A stretch of 64,000 bases of DNA from Alphaproteobacteria bacterium (GTDB lineage Bacteria; Pseudomonadota; Alphaproteobacteria; JAOXRX01), in the NCBI GenBank assembly GCA_025800285.1, contig JAOXRX010000037.1, forward strand, positions 144,150 through 208,149, in the 5' to 3' direction. The stretch's first letter is position 1. Every line of letters begins with the position of its first letter. A program made the translations under genes and the position numbers. The notes under the pieces were generated by a model, which saw only the letters and a program-made list of their open reading frames with translations, was not told where the DNA came from and made no database searches. Positions 3,491 through 64,000 of this stretch are shown one piece after another.

Positions 3491-4162
3491 TTAGTCCCAA
3501 ATAGAATCTTTTATTTTTTCTAACATTTTCTTATGAGCCTCTAACTCTTCACTACTTATTTCGAATCTTCTAGGCTCTTTAAAATCTCTTTTTACACTAC
3601 TTGTTAAAAAAGTTTTCTTATTATTATTTTCCGATTCTTTTAAAAACTCAGGTTGCTTACCACCACAAAGCTCCAAATAAACTTCTGATAATAACCTAGC
3701 ATCTAAAAGAGCTCCATGAAGAACACGATTCGAATTATCTATACCAAATCTTCTACAAAGAGCATCAAGATTTGCAGGGGACCCTGGAAACTTTTGTCTA
3801 GCAATTAAAAGAGTATCTACAATTTTATTTTCTAACTTTTTATAGCCAATATTTTCTAACTCATAATTTAAGAATTTCATATCAAACTCAGCATTATGAA
3901 TAACTAGTGGAGAATCACCTATAAATTCAATAAACTCTTTAGATACTTGTGAGAATATAGGCTTATCTGCTAAGAACTCATTTGTTAATCCATGGATTCT
4001 AATAGTTTCTTCAGGAACTTCTCTTTCTGGATTTATATATAAATGACATACATTTTCTGTAGGCACATGGTTTATTAACTCTACGCAACCTATTTCAACT
4101 ATTTTATCTCCTGTAAAAGGATCAAATCCTGTGGTTTCTGTATCTAAGGCAATTTCTCTCAT
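3491..4162 (-). CDS. dnaQ: DNA polymerase III epsilon subunit (3'-5' exonuclease)
   Basis: Exo motifs DTETTG, VIHNAEFDMKFL and HGALLDARLLSEVY. Confidence 0.9.
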   Translation of the reverse strand: MREIALDTETTGFDPFTGDKIVEIGCVELINHVPTENVCHLYINPEREVPEETIRIHGLTNEFLADKPIFSQVSKEFIEFIGDSPLVIHNAEFDMKFLNYELENIGYKKLENKIVDTLLIARQKFPGSPANLDALCRRFGIDNSNRVLHGALLDARLLSEVYLELCGGKQPEFLKESENNNKKTFLTSSVKRDFKEPRRFEISSEELEAHKKMLEKIKDSIWD

Positions 4163-4319
4163 AAAAAAATTTATAAATCATTTAAATATTATATTCAAGG
4201 AAAAATTTTATTAAAAAAATTATTAACTAACAATCCATACAATTAATATAAATATATTTTATATTTTTTGTTTATTTAGTTTGTACTGTTAATTATGGTG
4301 ATTATTTTTTATGAACAGT

Positions 4320-4527
4320 TTATCCACAATATAATAAACATGTGTTTATATCAAATATATATTAGATTATAAGGTTTTTTTATAAAAAGTTATCTTTTAT
4401 ACCTCTTTGTTAATTCTTTTATTCACTTGTTTATAAAAAAATAATTTTTTGTTTGTAAGAGTGGTTTTTTCCACTTTTCCTTAGTTTTTACTAATTAAGT
4501 AAAATTTTATTCACAAAGTTATACACA
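4320..4527 (+). promoter_or_regulatory. DnaA-box cluster in the dnaQ-dnaA intergenic region (candidate oriC or dnaA autoregulatory region)
   Basis: Perfect TTATCCACA at 4320-4328. One-mismatch boxes TTATTCACA (4507-4515) and TTATACACA (4519-4527), all in the same orientation, inside a 443-bp AT-rich spacer. Confidence 0.45.
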
Positions 4528-4605
4528 GAAAAAAACATTGATTTTTTTTTATTTATAATATATAGATTACTATTAAAGAGTGTAAAAAGAAGGGAATCGC
4601 TAAAA

Positions 4606-5934
4606 ATGTCACTTGATAATAAATGGAATGAAGCAAAAAATATCTTAAAAAGAGACTTAGGCGATACTTTGTACTCAAGATGGATTGAACCAATAAATGT
4701 GTGCCAACAAGTTCAAGATACTATATTAATGGCTGTTCCGACAAATTTTATGAAAACATGGATTGTTAGTAACTATATAGATAATATTGTTTCTAGCTGG
4801 AAGGATATTGACGATTCTGTAGTAAATATCGATTTTATGGTTATGGATGATTTTAAATCAGCAGATAATACAGAATCGAAGGAAGAAGTTGTAGAAGAAA
4901 AAGAAACAATAAAATTTGATATATCTTTGGATGAAAGTTTAAAATTCGAAAATTTTGTTGTAGGTAAGACAAATGAATTTGCTTATTCTGCAGCAAAAAG
5001 AATCGCAAATTCTGATAAAGTTGATTTTAATCCTCTGTTTTTATATGGAGGAGTTGGTCTTGGAAAAACTCATTTAATGAATGCTATCGCTTGGGAGATT
5101 AAAGAAAAATTCCCTAAGAAAAAAATTGCATATATGTCCGCTGAGAATTTTATGTATCAGTTTATTAATGCTCTTAGAGGCAATAATGCTATGGATTTTA
5201 AAAATAATTTCAGATCTGTAGATGTTTTAATGATTGATGATATTCAATTTATTTGTGGAAAAGATTCTACTCAAGAAGAATTTTTTCATACATTTAACTC
5301 GTTGGTAGATCAAAATAAACAGATAATAATATCTGCGGATAAAAGTCCTTCAGATTTGGAAGGTATGGAGTTAAGATTAAAAACTAGACTTGGATGGGGA
5401 TTAGTTGCAGACATTCATCCTACAACTTATGAGTTAAGATTAGGTATTTTACAATCAAAATTAGAAGGTTTTAGTATTCCTGTTCCTGATGATGTCCTAG
5501 ATTTCTTAGCTGATAACATTACTTCAAATGTTAGAGAGTTAGAAGGAGCTCTAAATAGAGTTGTAGCACATAGTGAACTAGTTGGTCGTCCAGTTACTAT
5601 AGCAAGTTCTAAAGAGCTTTTAAGTGATATATTAAGGTCAAATAGTCAGAAAGTTACGGTTGAAGAAATTCAAAAAGCTGTTTCAAACCATTATAATATT
5701 AAAAATTCAGAGATGCAATCTGATAGAAGAAGTAGAAATGTGGCTAGACCTAGACAAGTTGCGATGTATTTATCTAAACAAATGACCTCTTATTCTTTGC
5801 CAGAAATCGGTAGAAAATTTGGTGGTAGAGATCATACAACAGTTATGCATGCAATAAAAACTATTAATAATCTTAAAGTTGAGAATGCAAGTATTAAAGA
5901 AGATATAGAAATAATTACTCGTAATCTTGGATAA
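4606..5934 (+). CDS. dnaA: chromosomal replication initiator DnaA
   Basis: 442 aa. Walker A GGVGLGKTHL, MIDDIQF box, C-terminal DNA-binding signature IGRKFGGRDHTTVMHA. Confidence 0.97.
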   Translation: MSLDNKWNEAKNILKRDLGDTLYSRWIEPINVCQQVQDTILMAVPTNFMKTWIVSNYIDNIVSSWKDIDDSVVNIDFMVMDDFKSADNTESKEEVVEEKETIKFDISLDESLKFENFVVGKTNEFAYSAAKRIANSDKVDFNPLFLYGGVGLGKTHLMNAIAWEIKEKFPKKKIAYMSAENFMYQFINALRGNNAMDFKNNFRSVDVLMIDDIQFICGKDSTQEEFFHTFNSLVDQNKQIIISADKSPSDLEGMELRLKTRLGWGLVADIHPTTYELRLGILQSKLEGFSIPVPDDVLDFLADNITSNVRELEGALNRVVAHSELVGRPVTIASSKELLSDILRSNSQKVTVEEIQKAVSNHYNIKNSEMQSDRRSRNVARPRQVAMYLSKQMTSYSLPEIGRKFGGRDHTTVMHAIKTINNLKVENASIKEDIEIITRNLG

Positions 5935-6377: not shown

Positions 6378-7079
6378 ATGAAAAAAATTAAATATTTAGT
6401 GCTACTATTAGTCTTATTACTGTTGTTGGTTATTGGCTTTTTGTTCTCACCATTATTTCCTAGATATCTTGCAAAGGGAATTGAACATTTTGGTAGTAAA
6501 GCTATGAAAACAGATGTTAGTCTAGAAAAAATTGATTTAAGTATTTTAGATGGATCTATATCATTACAAAATCTTGAAATCTCAAGTCCAGAAGGATTCT
6601 CTAGCAAGGCCTTTAGATTGGATAATGTTTTTGTTGATTTAGATATAAAATCTGTTTTTAAAGAAGTTATAGTTATAGATTCTATATTAATGCAGTCTCC
6701 AAAAATAACACTTGAAAAACAAGGTAGAAACCTTAATGCTTTATTAAAAGGTATGGAGCCTAAAAAAGAAATTAAGGAAACAAAGGAAACTTCTAAAAAA
6801 GATGAAGTGGTTACAGCTGAAAAGAAAGTTATTATAAAAAGTTTATTAGTACAGGATGCTAAAGTGGCTGTAGGAGATACTTTTAATATTAACTTACCAG
6901 ATATATCTATTAAAGATTTGGGTGAAGAGAAGGAACCTTTAAAAGCTTCAACAGCTTTATATGATGTTTTGAGCATTGTTTCAAAAGATTCTCTAGGAGC
7001 TCTTGCTTCAAAAGGTAAAGAAACATTAAAAGATATAGAAGATACAGCAAAAGATTTTATAAAAGGATTTTTTAAATAG
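6378..7079 (+). CDS. AsmA-family N-terminal-domain-like membrane-anchored protein
   Basis: Start moved to MKKIKYL (RBS AAGGGAG upstream). N-terminal anchor LVLLLVLLLLLVIGF. The pattern VSLEKIDLSILDGSISLQNLEISSPEGFSS...ITLEKQGRNLN resembles the AsmA N-terminus. Intrinsic terminator follows at 7085-7112. Confidence 0.5.
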   Translation: MKKIKYLVLLLVLLLLLVIGFLFSPLFPRYLAKGIEHFGSKAMKTDVSLEKIDLSILDGSISLQNLEISSPEGFSSKAFRLDNVFVDLDIKSVFKEVIVIDSILMQSPKITLEKQGRNLNALLKGMEPKKEIKETKETSKKDEVVTAEKKVIIKSLLVQDAKVAVGDTFNINLPDISIKDLGEEKEPLKASTALYDVLSIVSKDSLGALASKGKETLKDIEDTAKDFIKGFFK

Positions 7080-7084
7080 AAAAA

Positions 7085-7112
7085 AGAGCAGTTGAAAAAC
7101 TGCTCTTTTTTT
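7085..7112 (+). terminator. rho-independent terminator
   Basis: AGAGCAG-TTGAAAAA-CTGCTCT followed by a T7 run. Confidence 0.75.
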
Positions 7113-7246
7113 GTTATTTATTGAAAACGGAGTATTTTTCTTTTAATAACTTATAAATCAGAAATATTTTTAGCAAAGAGAAAAAGAAAACTAGCAGTTT
7201 AAAACTTCGCTAGATTTTTTAAAAATAAAATTGATTTAATTTAAAA

Positions 7247-7323
7247 TGGTAGCAAGGGAGGGATTTGAACCCCCGACACAAGGATTATGATTCCTCTGCT
7301 CTAACCAACTGAGCTACCCTGCC
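7247..7323 (-). tRNA. tRNA with CAT anticodon (elongator Met or lysidine-modified Ile2)
   Basis: Minus strand reads GGCAGGGTAGCTCAGTTGGTTAGAGCAGAGGAATCATAATCCTTGTGTCGGGGGTTCAAATCCCTCCCTTGCTACCA. It folds as a cloverleaf with anticodon loop ATCATAA and an encoded CCA. Confidence 0.9.
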
Positions 7324-7390
7324 ACGAGTATTTTGTATTAGCGAATATACTATGCTAATACGAAATAGTCAAGCTTTTTTTGAAAAATTA

Positions 7391-7645
7391 TTAATCTATA
7401 GATCTTTTAATTTTAAAACTTAGTTGTTTATGTTTTATTGTTGCTTTTAACAAGCCCCATGACATAATCATTATTCCCCATAAAAAACCAAACAAAGTTG
7501 AGATTAAAACAACCATATATAAAGGCATTTTGTATGCAGATTCTAAAGGAAACATAGAAACATCAACAACAGTTCTGTTGCTTATAGCAAAAATTGCTAT
7601 AATAAATATGAGAATTAATGAAAAAATAGAGGAAATTATTCTCAT
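7391..7645 (-). CDS. LapA/DUF1049-family inner-membrane protein
   Basis: 84 aa with two TM segments, immediately downstream of ihfB. This is the conserved ihfB-lapA arrangement. Confidence 0.6.
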   Translation of the reverse strand: MRIISSIFSLILIFIIAIFAISNRTVVDVSMFPLESAYKMPLYMVVLISTLFGFLWGIMIMSWGLLKATIKHKQLSFKIKRSID

Positions 7646-33295: not shown

Positions 33296-33946
33296 TTATT
33301 TACACATATTTCCAAGTTTTGTGTATTCTTCAACAGTATCTATTTTCCCCTGCTCTATGGTTCTTTCTTTAACCATTCTCTCTATTAAGGGAGCTAGGTC
33401 GTCCTCAACTTTTTTGAGCAAATTAACTTTTGCATTAGAGTTTACTAAGCCGCTTGTAATTGGATATAGAGCTTGTTTTCTTAAGTTGTTTTTAATTTTA
33501 TCTCTGTATTTCTTTAATATAGCTATATCAATCTTAACATGTTGTCTTTCGTGAGTTATAACAGTGTTGTACTTGCAACTGCCTCTTTTATACTCTTTCG
33601 CTACAAATATGGTAGGAGAGAAAACCCAATTAAAATTTATAGTATCAATCCAATAACATGCCTTGCCAACATCTGGATATGTTAACCCTTTTAATTTTGC
33701 ACTTATTTTATAATTAGGAAATTTGCTTGACATAATTCCTTCATTTATCCACCCTGCCCATTGAGCTGATTTAGTTAAGTTCGCGGCTGTTAACTGTTTG
33801 GTAGTTTTTGAAAAATTGAATTTTGTCGGTGTTTTTCTCATAGAAAAATTTATTTTGGGCTTCGGAGCTTCGGGACAAGTAAAAGCAAAAGATTTGTGTT
33901 GCCTTAAGGCTAATATCATTAACATGTAGAATATAGTTTTTTTCAT
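33296..33946 (-). CDS. secreted putative Zn-metallopeptidase (DUF922-like)
   Basis: Signal peptide (MKKTIFYMLMILALRQHKSFA) and an HExxH motif (THERQHV). The family assignment is from memory only. Confidence 0.4.
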   Translation of the reverse strand: MKKTIFYMLMILALRQHKSFAFTCPEAPKPKINFSMRKTPTKFNFSKTTKQLTAANLTKSAQWAGWINEGIMSSKFPNYKISAKLKGLTYPDVGKACYWIDTINFNWVFSPTIFVAKEYKRGSCKYNTVITHERQHVKIDIAILKKYRDKIKNNLRKQALYPITSGLVNSNAKVNLLKKVEDDLAPLIERMVKERTIEQGKIDTVEEYTKLGNMCK

Positions 33947-34111
33947 TTTCCGCTTCTTTCTGGTTATTTGTGATTTTATTATACATAAAAAAATGATTTA
34001 TACAAGAAGCTTATTACAAAAATAAAATATTGAAAAAAATAAAAAAACACTTTACATCTATGTTGATATATGCTTTATTTAAGGTAGCTATAATTTTAAC
34101 AAGGGCATAAT

Positions 34112-34582
34112 ATGAAGAAAATCAGTATAAAAATAATGTTGTTTTCATTATTGTTTGTGACAAGCTTGGCTCAAGCTGAATCACATAATCCTTTCACCAT
34201 GAAAGGAGCTGGAGAGTTTACAAAAGCTGATAGAGAAAAACTAGAAAAAGAAATTCAGGGTCAAGTAGATATGAGAATTTCTGTGCTAGAAGAAAGAATA
34301 AGAGTTGAGATAGACCAAATTAGAAGAGAAAATGCTGAAAAGAACAGTGTTAGAAGAAATCAATCAAATAGACTTCCTTTTGATGGAGATAATAATTCTA
34401 ATTTAGACAGTTTTGAAACTGCTAAACCTAAAGTAAATAAATTCAAAGATGCTATGTTTATCGGTTGTATAGATAAGAAAGCTCTTTATAAGAACAAAAA
34501 AACAAACGAACAATTTTTTATACCAGTAGAAGAGGCGAAAGAAAATGAAGAATTTAATAAAATGGGTGGCTGTGGCTTTTAA
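34112..34582 (+). CDS. small periplasmic coiled-coil protein, possible secretin accessory protein
   Basis: Signal peptide MKKISIKIMLFSLLFVTSLAQA. Its 3' end overlaps the secretin start by 38 nt. No family recognised. Confidence 0.4.
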   Translation: MKKISIKIMLFSLLFVTSLAQAESHNPFTMKGAGEFTKADREKLEKEIQGQVDMRISVLEERIRVEIDQIRRENAEKNSVRRNQSNRLPFDGDNNSNLDSFETAKPKVNKFKDAMFIGCIDKKALYKNKKTNEQFFIPVEEAKENEEFNKMGGCGF

Positions 34583-36587
34583 TGCTTTCTTGTTGATTGC
34601 ATGTTCCCCTCCATTACCAGATACAAATTTAGACGATATGAATGGCTTCGAACAGAAGCAGCACTTTAAATGGGCAGAAAGAAAACCTCTTCGTAAAGTT
34701 AAACTTGCGGGAGATTTCTTTATATCTAAACAGTTAGATTCAAATCTACCTAAAAGCAAAGCAAAACAACCTATATCAATTAAGTTTTCAGGGAGAATTG
34801 GTACAGTAGGTGATATTGTTTTCATGCTTGAACAAAAAGGCTTTCCTGTTTCTTATAACTGGACCGTATATGATGAAGGTGCAAGTAGCCTAGGAGGAAG
34901 TAGTAGTGATATCTCTGACTCTGACTCTGATAGCGATATAGATTTTGAAGAAGATTTTTCATCAAGTGCTTCGTCAAATGGTAATGCTCTAAGTGCTATA
35001 ACTCAGCTGGAAAAAAGAGTTGTTCCTTTTAAAACATATAAAGGTACAATTGGCGGACTTTTAAAAAGACTTAGAAGTGCAATGAATATTTCTTATTGGT
35101 ATGAAGATGGAACTATTTTCTTATCTACAAAACAAGAGTATGTTGTTTCTGTTCCTCAACAAAAAGATATTATAGATTCAATTTCAAGTGAGATTACAGC
35201 TTTAGGTGCTACAGATGTTTCAACTTCTTTGACAGCTGGTCAAATAGTTTATTATGCAAAACCAAGATCTCAACAAAACTTGATAAAACCATTTTTGCAA
35301 AGAATTTCACATAACTTAAGTGAGATTACATTGCAGGTTGCTCTAGTGCAGGTTGAGGTTAAAGGCAATAAATCTACAGGTTTTGATTGGGATGCATTTA
35401 AACTTGAATTGAAAGACCCTACTGATAGCTCTAAAAATAGTAATGCTGTAACAATTCAACCATATAATGGAGATTCTGATAATCCGACAGGAAATATCTC
35501 TGGTAAGTTCTTTAGAAAAGGTATCTCAATATTCGGAACTGAAACAGATGTGTCAGTTGATATGGCTATTAATATTCTATCTACTTTAGGTAGAACAACT
35601 ACAGAACAAAATGTTGAAATGAGAACAATTTCTGGTAAAGAAGTAAAACTGGAATCTGTTAAAGAAGAGGCTTATGTTTCTGGATATGATGGTGGTAGCT
35701 ATGGCGATAATCCTGAACCTCCTTCTCCAAAATTTGATACTGTTGAAACAGGTCTTACTTTAACATTCTTGCCGGTTTTTGATGCTTATAATGCAATCGT
35801 AACTATTGATGCTAACTTTGAGCTAAGTAATAGATTGGCTGATACAACTGTTAATGCTGGGGGAGACTTTAAAGAGATAACAGTTAAACCAAATATTAAA
35901 AAAGACAATCTTCAAGATGTTGTTAGAATACCAGTTGGTGAAACAGTTATTTTAGGTGGTTTGATGAGTGAGATTAGTAATGATAATAGAACAACTCCAA
36001 TGGGAGCTTGGTCTTTAAATAGTGCTAAGATTAGCTCTAATAAGCAAGCTTTGTTCTTAATTATAAGACCTTTAGTTACTCTTTATGAAACAGAAGGAAA
36101 TGAAATGAGCTTAGATGAAGAAAAGGTAGTTAAAAATGTAAAGTATAATTACAATAAAGCTCAAGAAAAGAAAAAAGAAGATGAGAAAAAAGCTCTTGAA
36201 GAAGCTGAAAAAAAGAAAGCTCAAGAAATAAAGCAAGCTAAAGAAAAGGTTAATAGAAAAGCTTTAGAACTAGAGCAAAAAAGAAGAGAAAAAGAAAAGC
36301 AAAAAGCTGAAATGGAAAAAAAGCTTGAGCAAATAAAAAAAGAGATGGAAAAGAAACATCAAGCTATGTTAGAAAAAACATCTCAAGAAAACTCTAGGCT
36401 AAAAGCTGAATTGGAAGAGCAAAAAAAGGTTAGAGCTGTTTTAGAAGCTGAAGAAGAGTGGAAAAAAGAAGAGGTTGTAGAAGATGTTTCAGAAGAGATC
36501 TCTGAAGAAGAAATTAAAATACCACTAAGCGAAGAAGAGCTTAAAAAGATTAAAATGCTTAACATGCTAAGAGGAATTAAGAACTAG
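34545..36587 (+). CDS. lipoprotein secretin (T2SS / type IV pilus secretin family) with a C-terminal Lys/Glu coiled-coil extension
   Basis: Lipobox LLIAC. Secretin-domain hallmarks: ITLQVALVQVEV..GFDW at its start, and VRIPVGETVILGGLMSE...ALFLIIRPLV at its end. An N-terminal Ser/Asp linker and about 155 aa of K/E-rich sequence follow the secretin core. Confidence 0.7.
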   Translation: MKNLIKWVAVAFNAFLLIACSPPLPDTNLDDMNGFEQKQHFKWAERKPLRKVKLAGDFFISKQLDSNLPKSKAKQPISIKFSGRIGTVGDIVFMLEQKGFPVSYNWTVYDEGASSLGGSSSDISDSDSDSDIDFEEDFSSSASSNGNALSAITQLEKRVVPFKTYKGTIGGLLKRLRSAMNISYWYEDGTIFLSTKQEYVVSVPQQKDIIDSISSEITALGATDVSTSLTAGQIVYYAKPRSQQNLIKPFLQRISHNLSEITLQVALVQVEVKGNKSTGFDWDAFKLELKDPTDSSKNSNAVTIQPYNGDSDNPTGNISGKFFRKGISIFGTETDVSVDMAINILSTLGRTTTEQNVEMRTISGKEVKLESVKEEAYVSGYDGGSYGDNPEPPSPKFDTVETGLTLTFLPVFDAYNAIVTIDANFELSNRLADTTVNAGGDFKEITVKPNIKKDNLQDVVRIPVGETVILGGLMSEISNDNRTTPMGAWSLNSAKISSNKQALFLIIRPLVTLYETEGNEMSLDEEKVVKNVKYNYNKAQEKKKEDEKKALEEAEKKKAQEIKQAKEKVNRKALELEQKRREKEKQKAEMEKKLEQIKKEMEKKHQAMLEKTSQENSRLKAELEEQKKVRAVLEAEEEWKKEEVVEDVSEEISEEEIKIPLSEEELKKIKMLNMLRGIKN

Positions 36588-36595
36588 GAGATATT

Positions 36596-37909
36596 ATGGC
36601 TGATATAAAAGATGATTTCATAATAAGTGATAATAGTGATATCTCTGATGAAGTGGATATGGGAGAAGAACTTATATCTGGAGACTTTAACTCTATAGAA
36701 GATATTGATGTTTTAGAAGAAAAAACACAAGGTATTGTTGGAGGTAAAGATTTAGTAGATGGTGAAAAAGATGATTTTCTTTTAAATAAGGGTCATAAAA
36801 ATCGTAAAAAGACAAAAAATGTTGATATCGAAAAAGTTAACAGAAGAAGTAAGAATAATATAACATCTGCAAGAACTGTAGTTATTGACTTTTTGGATGG
36901 AACTAGTAAGAAAAGTGAAGCTATTGCTTATGCTAGAGGTTTTATTGATAACCATTATCCTGTTCCTGCTGATTGCTATATGTATGCAATAGCAAATGAA
37001 GGTGGTTATGCAGTAGAAATTCATGATGGTGGAGATGGTAAAGCTTATTTGCCAGAAATAATAAAGACTTTACAAGAAGACCCAACAGCTTGTATTTGTA
37101 TAAGAAACAAAAGAAGAGTTCTTGAAATAAAGAAAAGTGATAAAGAAGGGTTTTCTTCAATATTATTACCAGAAGGTATTGATTCTGTCGAAACAAATAT
37201 AGTGAATATTTGCCCTTCAAATACAAATATGACACCGTATAGTTTTAAGGCATTACCTTTTGCTTTGGTTGGAATGGTTTTTGGTGCTTTAGGATTCTCA
37301 TTCTTAATTATTTCTTTGATTGTAGGTGTTTTAGCTAGAACTGCTCCTGTTAAAACCCTTCCTGTTACAAAGGTTAATAACTTACCTATACAGCAATGGG
37401 ATGAATTAATGAATAATTATTCTGATGAAAAGTATGTTGGTAAATTATCTTATGTTTCTGATAAATGGAATGTTGAAAATAAGATTTCTCCATTGTTTGT
37501 GCCTAAAAAGGCAGAAGAAGATAGTGCTGTAGAGGAAGTATCTATTAATAAAGAAATAGAAGCTGAGTATATCTTATCAGATGGAGATAAAGCAAAAATA
37601 GATATTAAGATACAAGAGGAAATTATAGAGATTGAAGATGAATCTCTATCAAAAAATGAATTTGAAGCTGATTTTCCTCAAGCAGAGGTAAAAGAAGATA
37701 TTATAGAAAATTCTTCAATACAAGACTCTAAAGAAATAGAGAAGGTAAATAAAACTCTTATAGATGAAGAAGAGGTTGATTTATTGACACCTCCTGCTCA
37801 TCCTGAAGATCTTTCAGAGATTAAAGATATAGAACTAATAGAAGATACTTTATCAGAGGAAATGCCTCCGATAGAGGAATATGATTTAACATATCCTACA
37901 GAAATGTAA
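36596..37909 (+). CDS. acidic bitopic membrane protein, function unknown
   Basis: 437 aa with a single central TM (ALPFALVGMVFGALGFSFLIISLIVGVLA) and Asp/Glu-rich termini. It starts 8 nt after the secretin stop. Confidence 0.4.
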   Translation: MADIKDDFIISDNSDISDEVDMGEELISGDFNSIEDIDVLEEKTQGIVGGKDLVDGEKDDFLLNKGHKNRKKTKNVDIEKVNRRSKNNITSARTVVIDFLDGTSKKSEAIAYARGFIDNHYPVPADCYMYAIANEGGYAVEIHDGGDGKAYLPEIIKTLQEDPTACICIRNKRRVLEIKKSDKEGFSSILLPEGIDSVETNIVNICPSNTNMTPYSFKALPFALVGMVFGALGFSFLIISLIVGVLARTAPVKTLPVTKVNNLPIQQWDELMNNYSDEKYVGKLSYVSDKWNVENKISPLFVPKKAEEDSAVEEVSINKEIEAEYILSDGDKAKIDIKIQEEIIEIEDESLSKNEFEADFPQAEVKEDIIENSSIQDSKEIEKVNKTLIDEEEVDLLTPPAHPEDLSEIKDIELIEDTLSEEMPPIEEYDLTYPTEM

Positions 37910-37933: not shown

Positions 37934-38161
37934 ATGGAAGATAAAATTAGAGAGCTAGCTTATCAAATTTGGGAAGAAGAAGGTTGTCCTCACGGTAGAG
38001 AGATTGAGCATTGGAATATGGCTCAACAAAGATTGCTAGAAGCAGAATCTAAAACTGTAAAAGCAAAAAAAGCTCCAGCAAAAAAGAAAGTAGCGCCAAA
38101 AAAGGTATCTATAAAAAAGAAAGTGGCGCCAAAGAAAAAAGCTGCAATAAAGAAGAAATAG
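37934..38161 (+). CDS. DUF2934-family protein with a Lys/Ala/Pro-rich tail
   Basis: N-terminus IRELAYQIWEEEGCPHGREIEHWNMAQQRL matches the DUF2934 consensus. The tail is KAKKAPAKKKVAPKKVSIKKKVAPKKKAAIKKK. Confidence 0.65.
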   Translation: MEDKIRELAYQIWEEEGCPHGREIEHWNMAQQRLLEAESKTVKAKKAPAKKKVAPKKVSIKKKVAPKKKAAIKKK

Positions 38162-63409: not shown

Positions 63410-64000
63410 ATGATAGCAGTAGTTATATATGGTATCATTGCAATTGCTTTAGCAGCTGTAGCGGGATATTCAATTATTTCATTTTTTGATGCATCAAGAA
63501 CAATGTCAAGAGCATCAGAAAACTTATCGAGAATGAATATGGCTGTAAGTTTAGTTAAGGCAAATGTAAGATATGTTGATGGAGAAGCTCTTGTTCCAAT
63601 GGGAAGTGCTGGAGCAGATTATACAATACTTCCAACATGGATGGGAGCTCATGATACATCAACATCGGGCGATAAATACTTATATTGTCCATTTGCTACT
63701 GCTAATAATCCCTCTGCTACTTCTGGAACTGTAACAGATGGAGACTCTTCTACTTATACTGTTGCTATAAAGAATAATTCACAAACAGGAAGCAGAGATT
63801 ATGTTTATGGATTTGATGATACATTTATGGATGCCTCTGTAAGAAACAAGGGAGTGCTTGCTTTTGTTATATCTCCTTTAGAAGGAAACTCCAATCTACC
63901 AAATTGTTCAGATGTTAATTATAATGCTAATGGAAACTTTGTTGTACCTAATGGTATAGTTGAAGTTGTTCAGCTCGGTACAGTGTTCGCTCATAGAAAT
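63410..64000 (+). CDS. hypothetical N-terminally anchored protein (3' end beyond the window)
   Basis: Frame is open from ATG 63410 to the window end (197 codons). It is missing from the ORF track because it has no stop. N-terminus MIAVVIYGIIAIALAAVAGYSIISFF is followed by a polar Ser/Thr/Asn/Gly-rich domain. Confidence 0.4.
   Translation, partial: MIAVVIYGIIAIALAAVAGYSIISFFDASRTMSRASENLSRMNMAVSLVKANVRYVDGEALVPMGSAGADYTILPTWMGAHDTSTSGDKYLYCPFATANNPSATSGTVTDGDSSTYTVAIKNNSQTGSRDYVYGFDDTFMDASVRNKGVLAFVISPLEGNSNLPNCSDVNYNANGNFVVPNGIVEVVQLGTVFAHRN

Follow-up and report, generated by a model that had tools for sequence, protein, structure and literature searches.

A secretin module beside glgB in a genome-reduced alphaproteobacterium as the probable envelope part of a divergent, scattered type IV filament machine

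In type IVa pili (T4aP), pilQ, pilBCD and pilMNOP are located at separate sites in Pseudomonas and Neisseria, and type IVb pili (T4bP) are encoded by operons such as bfpG-B-C-U-D-E of enteropathogenic Escherichia coli, pilL-V of R64 and tcpQ-C of Vibrio cholerae. Here we analyze a secretin gene module in a stretch of 64,000 nucleotides (hereafter the window, C51:144150-208149) from an alphaproteobacterial genome of 1.10 Mb that is distributed over 117 contigs, is 97% complete and has a G+C content of about 31%; coordinates given without a contig refer to the window. The module (34112-37909) encodes a 156-amino acid (aa) protein with an NPF motif, a 680-aa secretin and a 437-aa bitopic protein, and it adjoins glgB both here and in a relative. 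Gene content in this genome and gene order in its relatives make it very probable that the module forms the outer-membrane and envelope sub-complex of a divergent type IV filament machine, whose ancestral cluster of about 11 genes has been broken up here.

This machine would share traits with several described systems. As in type II secretion systems (T2SS), the mannose-sensitive hemagglutinin (MSHA) pilus and T4aP, its partner ATPase is nearest to GspE and PilB and carries an MshE-type motif for cyclic di-GMP (c-di-GMP). As in T2SS and MSHA, the best NCBIfam match is GspF for the platform protein and MshL for the secretin, and the best, albeit weak, fold matches of the 437-aa protein are cytoplasmic domains of GspL. 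Unlike in T2SS, MSHA and T4aP, however, the subunits have no class III signal peptide, the secretin is a predicted lipoprotein and the genes are arranged in the type IVb manner. None of the equivalog cut-offs was reached (GspE, 289 versus 630 bits; GspF, 53 versus 424; MshL, 50 versus 250), and with those GspE and GspF scores and no other Gsp families the system falls outside a canonical T2SS (Gsp). Neither GspC, G, H, I, J, K or M nor any PilMNOP family was matched.

The likeness to type IVb operons concerns the gene order in compact relatives and the lipoprotein secretin, which is probably self-piloting and whose profile matches BfpB (PDB entry 9u5s; E = 1.6e-4). An initial annotation of the window had compared the module with type IVb secretin sub-operons, and for gene order and the kind of secretin this comparison is borne out. 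At the level of families it is not, as the 437-aa and 156-aa proteins match neither PAP_PilO nor TcpQ. Moreover, in contrast to type IVb systems, the ATPase is only distantly related to BfpD (91 bits) and the clusters contain neither a prepilin peptidase nor a classical prepilin, and a genuine R64-type cluster coexists in the genome. With scattered T4aP loci the system has in common that one machine would be encoded at several distant loci, with the secretin away from the motor genes, but the component families differ and the scattering is secondary. The machine fits no specific T2SS, T4aP, T4bP, MSH or tight adherence (Tad) model tested. Many unassigned 'generic' systems are contained in the survey of Denise et al. 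(2019; PMC6668835), and the present lineage may be among them.

The secretin module and its proteins

All four reading frames of the block described in the initial annotation were recovered, namely a divergent gene for a secreted HExxH protein and the three genes of the module. Direct reading of the sequence showed that the gene for the 156-aa protein (34112..34582, + strand) overlaps the start of the secretin gene (34545..36587, + strand) by 38 nt and that 8 nt separate the secretin stop from the start of the gene for the 437-aa protein (36596..37909, + strand). Upstream of both downstream starts a GAGG/AGGAG site is present. Because of this overlap and this short gap, each accompanied by a ribosome-binding site, the three genes probably form one transcription unit with translational coupling, and their arrangement fits a single operon. 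A scan for promoters and terminators was uninformative, with counts equal to the shuffled expectation.

The product of the 34545 reading frame, whose identity as a secretin had been left to a profile search, is recognized by Pfam Secretin (PF00263) over residues 345-482 with 38.7 bits (gathering score 27.5) and with 40.9 bits in the genome scan. Its N-terminus (MKNLIKWVAVAFNAFLLIAC) consists of a signal peptide with the lipobox ...AFLLIAC(20)S, whose Cys20 is retained without exception in the four homologues compared; from this lipobox the secretin is predicted to be a lipoprotein. The best NCBIfam match was MshL (TIGR02519) with 49.8 bits, far under the equivalog cut-off of 250.2. When a profile of four homologues was compared with the PDB, GspD (6i1x, E = 8e-5) and BfpB (9u5s, E as above) were matched about equally well. 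In Pfam, the window secretin does not match Secretin_N_2, a domain that is matched by the genome's own PilN. Two low-complexity regions were also observed, a Ser/Asp-rich linker (about 34870-34990; residues about 110-150) and a lineage-specific, Lys/Glu-rich coiled-coil tail of 155 aa at the C-terminus (36117-36587; residues about 525-680). This tail is found in a 65%-identical homologue as well, is substituted by a Pro/Ala-rich one in another relative and is absent from the secretins of Azospirillum, locus L046 and Bosea.

The 437-aa protein has a single predicted transmembrane helix at about residues 219-247, preceded by about 220 and followed by 190 residues, in agreement with the bitopic topology that had been proposed. 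An acidic, disordered N-terminus is followed by a cytoplasmic alpha/beta domain (residues about 90-215, about 125 aa), the helix, a short periplasmic alpha-beta-beta element of about 40 aa and a disordered tail that is again acidic. Only the middle of the protein, that is the cytoplasmic domain, the transmembrane helix and the periplasmic element, is conserved in the family, and the acidic stretches at both ends are specific to its own clade. The family is large, with 514 clusters at 50% identity at E<=1e-3 and 411 at E<=1e-10, and yet no Pfam, NCBIfam or PDB sequence match was obtained for the 437-aa protein. In an AlphaFold2 model, residues of about 90-180 reach a pLDDT >90, and a Foldseek search of the PDB with this model returned cytoplasmic domains of GspL/EpsL/PulL as the best four matches, one of which had been crystallized with GspE. 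These matches are weak (E 0.06-0.19), and the modeled likeness to GspL is suggestive only, being coherent with the gene context but no proof. From topology, model, Foldseek matches and context, we propose that the protein is a link between motor and periplasm of the GspL/BfpC type. An assignment as PilO was rejected, as Pfam PAP_PilO (PF06864) was not matched at E<=1 and the comparison with the genome's own PilO gave an E of 0.27 in BLASTP and a probability of 0.3% in hhalign.

The 156-aa protein, encoded by the first gene of the sub-operon, is predicted to be secreted and consists of a signal peptide, the NPF motif, a coiled coil and a C-terminal F-I-G-C...G-C mini-domain. In nine sequences of its family, NPF just after the signal peptide is invariant, and the C-terminus is a Cys-bracketed segment of the form F-[IV]-[GA]-C-x-[DN]-G-x-A...G-C. 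Homologues are encoded directly upstream of the secretin in loci L025, L042, L043, L035, L037, L040, L046 and L049 and on the Bosea plasmid described below. The protein itself has no match in Pfam or NCBIfam, and assignments to TcpQ or any other known family were discarded, given that Pfam with the nine members and a profile search of the PDB yielded only noise. The TcpQ domain (PF10671) was found in none of the nine members, whereas the protein encoded upstream of PilN on contig C48 matches TcpQ with 73 bits. A resemblance to PilP, based on the NPF motif and a short beta segment, was considered and dropped.

Partner genes in this genome and in its relatives

Genes for a T2SSE ATPase, a T2SSF platform protein or an A24 prepilin peptidase are absent from the window, as initially claimed, and genome-wide scans place all of them outside it. 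In total, the genome encodes two secretins, two T2SSF platforms, four T2SSE-family ATPases and a single A24 prepilin peptidase. On C48 (49272-57916), a TcpQ-domain protein and a PilN-type lipoprotein secretin are encoded along with PAP_PilO, a small protein, the ATPase PilQ, the platform PilR and two prepilins of the PilS/bundlin type that have classical G|VTLLE sites; together they make up a complete R64-type type IVb cluster. Another ATPase is DotB, encoded next to DotC and DotD (C23:45396-48049). The genome search suggested by the initial annotation thus located motor parts outside the window, but the type IVb cluster has its own secretin, so that the module is not a part missing from C48.

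The remaining motor genes have no secretin nearby. A 577-aa ATPase of the GspE/PilB type (C51:209173-210906; T2SSE, 289 bits) begins 1,024 nt past the window end at contig position 208149; compared with reference proteins it scores 239 bits for GspE, about 220 for PilB and 91 for BfpD, and it passes the model of the MshE-related, c-di-GMP-binding N-terminal motif with 41.1 bits (cut-off 38). A lone 411-aa GspF-like platform protein is encoded between unrelated genes (C56:55125-56360). A 320-aa PilT-like ATPase (C23:30798-31760) matches pilT_fam with 126 bits, which is below the cut-off, and may be the retraction motor of the same machine; its gene is about 2 kb from that of a 142-aa leaderless pilin-like protein.

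Also, two secreted giants with GLUG motifs and nearly identical N-termini are encoded close to the two ATPases outside the type IVb and Dot systems, one near each. The 818-aa protein (C51:210927-213383) is encoded directly after the 577-aa ATPase and the 1118-aa protein (C23:25102-28458), which has a region like the N-terminus of M26 IgA proteases, about 2 kb from the 320-aa ATPase. They may be cargo or fibre-associated adhesins.

Directly before the 577-aa ATPase, a gene for a 515-aa large pilin-like protein (MIAVVIYGIIAIALAAVAG...) starts inside the window, with its first 197 codons at 63410..64000 on the + strand (full reading frame C51:207559-209106), and runs off its end. The claimed absence of partner genes therefore holds for motor and peptidase but not fully for pilin-like genes. 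Seven proteins of this genome have the common N-terminus M-[AS]-N-L-I-[IV]-T-I without a leader peptide, and the six genes besides that of the 515-aa protein lie on contigs C51, C23, C115 and C34. One of them, for a 125-aa protein, is beside the gene for a 137-aa membrane protein with the Cys-rich motif SFCMGESC (C51:14051-14875). This membrane protein weakly matches (E 0.003) the 146-aa product encoded after the 437-aa family member in locus L046 and is probably encoded by a further fragment of the ancestral operon. On C34 (31336-39514), leaderless pilin-like N-termini are found on a giant of 2,295 aa and on the 424-aa protein encoded next to it (MSNLIITILGIVL and MANLIITMMAIAL, respectively), and the two look like giant modular subunits.

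In the clusters of relatives, the proteins in 'pilin' position start at Met1 with M-[AFYS]-[NQS]-L-[IV], lead straight into a hydrophobic helix and have a Cys pair at the C-terminus. The pilin-like partner proteins lack Gly(-1) and have Ile, Val or Met in place of Glu5; Pfam N_methyl (PF07963) is not matched by them, whereas the PilS pilins of C48 do match. An AlphaFold2 model of one such protein shows an N-terminal helix of 57 residues and, at the C-terminus, a small domain. We call these proteins pilin-like because of their N-terminal helix, size, Cys pair or disulfide, copy number and gene position, and we infer from these features that the subunits are pilins. Peptidase_A24 is absent from the clusters with Pfam listings (L046, L048 and L049), and the Bosea annotation names no peptidase. 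As the subunits lack Gly(-1) and Glu5 and no peptidase is encoded in the clusters checked, the machine probably works without a prepilin peptidase.

Comparison of the proteins of this genome, by phmmer, with ten loci obtained with the secretin profile revealed the arrangement of these genes in relatives. In Azospirillum cavernae the gene for a secretin homologue (36% identity) has directly after it that for a T2SSF platform, whose best match in the present genome is the lone platform of C56 (E 2.6e-60) and not PilR of C48. In Azospirillum soli (L037) and two metagenome-assembled genomes, a stretch of about 12 kb holds homologous genes for ATPase, 515-aa protein, one small pilin-like protein, 156-aa protein, secretin and platform, and one of the two assembled genomes (L035) has a homologue of the 437-aa protein as well. 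Genes for 515-aa homologues adjoin the ATPase gene in L035, L037 and L038 and are inside the same cluster in L046.

Further compact clusters were found via distant members of the 437-aa family. In L046, one strand encodes a 182-aa NPF protein, the secretin, the 437-aa family protein, proteins of 146 and 72 aa and T2SSE, followed by a 223-aa pilin-like protein, T2SSF, three small pilin-like proteins and a 572-aa pilin-like protein; the clusters L048 and L049 are similar. The usual compact order is small NPF protein, secretin, 437-aa family protein, two small proteins, ATPase, pilin-like protein, platform and more pilin-like proteins. The same core is carried by plasmid pANAM02 of Bosea sp. ANAM02, where PGAP names only secretin, ATPase and platform and leaves eight of the 11 genes as hypothetical. 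T2SSE and T2SSF share a cluster with the secretin in L035, L046, L049 and pANAM02. Members of the 437-aa family adjoin the secretin in L025, L041-L043, L046, L049 and Bosea, and in L035 the member is encoded one gene before the secretin. Secretin homologues are also found on large plasmids of Azospirillum sp. B510, Rhizobium leguminosarum, Methylorubrum extorquens AM1, Sphingosinicella and Erythrobacter, and distant ones (about 27-30% identity) on megaplasmids of Pseudomonas and Vibrio.

In the closest relative, at about 50% identity, the module is isolated as it is here, with genes for a 216-aa protein on the opposite strand, a 218-aa protein, the secretin, a 420-aa protein, a DUF2934 protein and glgB; the secretin is 65% and the 437-aa protein 46% identical. 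Since this relative has the same isolated layout, the split of the module from its machine predates the present genome, and the genes have remained intact from then on. The survey of the three-gene block proposed initially thus found it isolated in a close relative and embedded in machine clusters farther out. Judged from this gene order, the scattering in the present genome is secondary, given that relatives keep a single cluster.

A proposed filament machine and alternative explanations

In our reconstruction, the fragments in this genome are the secretin module (34112-37909), the genes for the 515-aa protein and the ATPase from 63410 onward, the platform gene of C56 and six more pilin-like genes. 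ATPase and platform would build up a fibre or pseudopilus by polymerizing the pilin-like proteins. The GspL-like cytoplasmic domain of the 437-aa protein would dock the ATPase, its transmembrane helix and short element would reach the periplasm, and the 156-aa NPF protein would bridge to the secretin, which as a lipoprotein could serve as exit through the outer membrane, probably without a separate pilotin. Assembly is probably gated by c-di-GMP via the N-terminus of the ATPase. Our best guess for the output is a c-di-GMP-controlled adhesive fibre displaying large modular subunits, preferred because of the GLUG giants beside the ATPases and the giant proteins with a pilin-like head; T2SS-like export of the neighboring GLUG proteins is our second choice. 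Because the machine was kept despite heavy gene loss and alongside these two kinds of giant proteins, it is a candidate attachment device of a host-associated bacterium.

Several observations weigh against this reconstruction. The genome is a metagenome-assembled one in 117 contigs, and since the genes are physically separated in it, their joint function is deduced from relatives. The relationship of the pilin-like proteins to pilins was non-significant in Foldseek, PDB profile and Pfam searches and in hhalign against the genome's own PilS; the AlphaFold2 model used is mediocre (mean pLDDT 68.5), and the best pilin among its Foldseek matches was PilA1 of Clostridioides difficile with an E of 6.3. 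The alignment of the 437-aa protein with GspL is weak, covering about 118 columns, roughly half a GspL cytoplasmic domain, with a TM-score of about 0.2. Furthermore, no homologue of the 437-aa protein was found in the Azospirillum clusters within the flanks examined, which is why it may not be needed in them or may have been replaced.

The initial annotation had offered two readings, a module that works with distant genes and a stand-alone outer-membrane channel. The partner genes and the compact clusters favor the former. That the module acts as a channel without any ATPase, platform or filament would agree with the lack of motor genes over 25 kb to both sides in the window and with the identical layout next to glgB in the closest relative. 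However, at least six more distant lineages embed the same families together with T2SSE, T2SSF and pilin-like genes, and the present genome retains orthologues of those partners that have no secretin of their own, which makes a stand-alone channel very unlikely. The module could instead be a second or spare secretin set for the R64-type pilus or for Dot/Icm, as a diverged duplicate of PilL/PilN/PilO. Its order of small protein, lipoprotein secretin and bitopic protein of about 430 aa does mirror TcpQ-like protein, PilN and PilO of C48, and the two secretins of the genome are weakly similar at the N-terminus (pairwise E 0.001). But C48 already has a full set of secretin, PilO, ATPase, platform and pilins, the 437-aa family shows no relation to PAP_PilO, the 156-aa protein has no TcpQ domain, and orthologues in relatives are clustered with an ATPase like GspE/PilB and not with one of the BfpD/PilQ type. 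We consider such a spare set highly improbable.

A displaced component, as the initial annotation had put it, is essentially what the module appears to be, except that its parent machine is not a canonical T2SS or pilus operon and is itself fragmented. Fragmentation raises the question of decay, that is, of a machine shattered by genome reduction and no longer functional, with secretin genes heading for loss, and the genome size of 1.1 Mb, the many pieces of the cluster and the long, low-complexity, acidic or Lys/Glu-rich extensions acquired by its proteins would be in line with it. We regard decay as unlikely, though, as all core reading frames are intact without internal stops, the frames of the module are intact also in the relative at 46-65% identity, every core role is still encoded somewhere in the genome, and it is normal for working type IVa pili to have their pil genes scattered. 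Finally, single-gene secretins occur in inoviruses, and a pIV-like secretin of filamentous-phage origin might serve phage extrusion. With no phage-type flanking genes, a position at glgB that is conserved in the relative and homologues in clusters with ATPase and platform, this origin has a negligible likelihood.

The reconstruction as part of a scattered filament machine gives the anomaly of a secretin without a machine a concrete, testable explanation and points to a type IV filament lineage that annotation pipelines have missed; for the NPF, secretin and 437-aa families there is no model specific to this system. As a serious though tentative possibility, we suggest an undescribed lineage of machines that is common on alphaproteobacterial chromids and megaplasmids (Bosea, M. 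extorquens AM1, R. leguminosarum and Azospirillum), occurs in many uncultured relatives, uses leaderless subunits devoid of Glu5, is independent of a peptidase and has an envelope part of NPF protein, lipoprotein secretin and 'half-GspL'. A search of the available literature found no description of this system or of leaderless pilins, which is not proof of novelty. If the leaderless subunits polymerize, they would be a Proteobacterial exception to the rule of class III signal peptide and prepilin peptidase, and cultured carriers exist.

Flanking genes and further observations

The divergent gene next to the module (33296..33946, - strand) encodes a 216-aa secreted protein with the HExxH motif HERQH, which had been counted as a member of the block and is regarded here as a neighbor only, not a conserved partner beyond the close clade. 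The protein has no match in Pfam or NCBIfam and only 10 homologues; it is retained beside the module in the roughly 50%-identical relative (L025/L026), and near a 30%-identical homologue (P0162) no secretin module is present. With such a distant homologue lacking the module, a role of the HExxH protein in the system was rejected, and it is probably not a machine part. In L046, a divergent Peptidase_M15 gene (7031-7618, - strand; PF05951/PF08291, cell-wall peptidase type) is located just upstream of the secretin sub-operon, and L035 has a reading frame of similar size and appearance at the same place (4035-4637, - strand). The HExxH protein of the window, which is unrelated to Peptidase_M15, holds the equivalent position.

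The genome-reduced alphaproteobacterium studied here has an R64-type cluster and DotB/DotC/DotD fixed together in its chromosome, an IncI-like combination.

Downstream of the module, a 75-aa DUF2934 protein with a Lys/Ala/Pro-rich tail (37934..38161, + strand; Pfam DUF2934, 52.1 bits) is encoded. DUF2934 homologues follow the module in L025 (11290-11586) and the platform gene in Azospirillum soli L037 (13189-13506), there at a distance of about 0.8 kb, and are also found shortly after the platform gene in L038, so that DUF2934 is a recurrent neighbor of the system across distant relatives.

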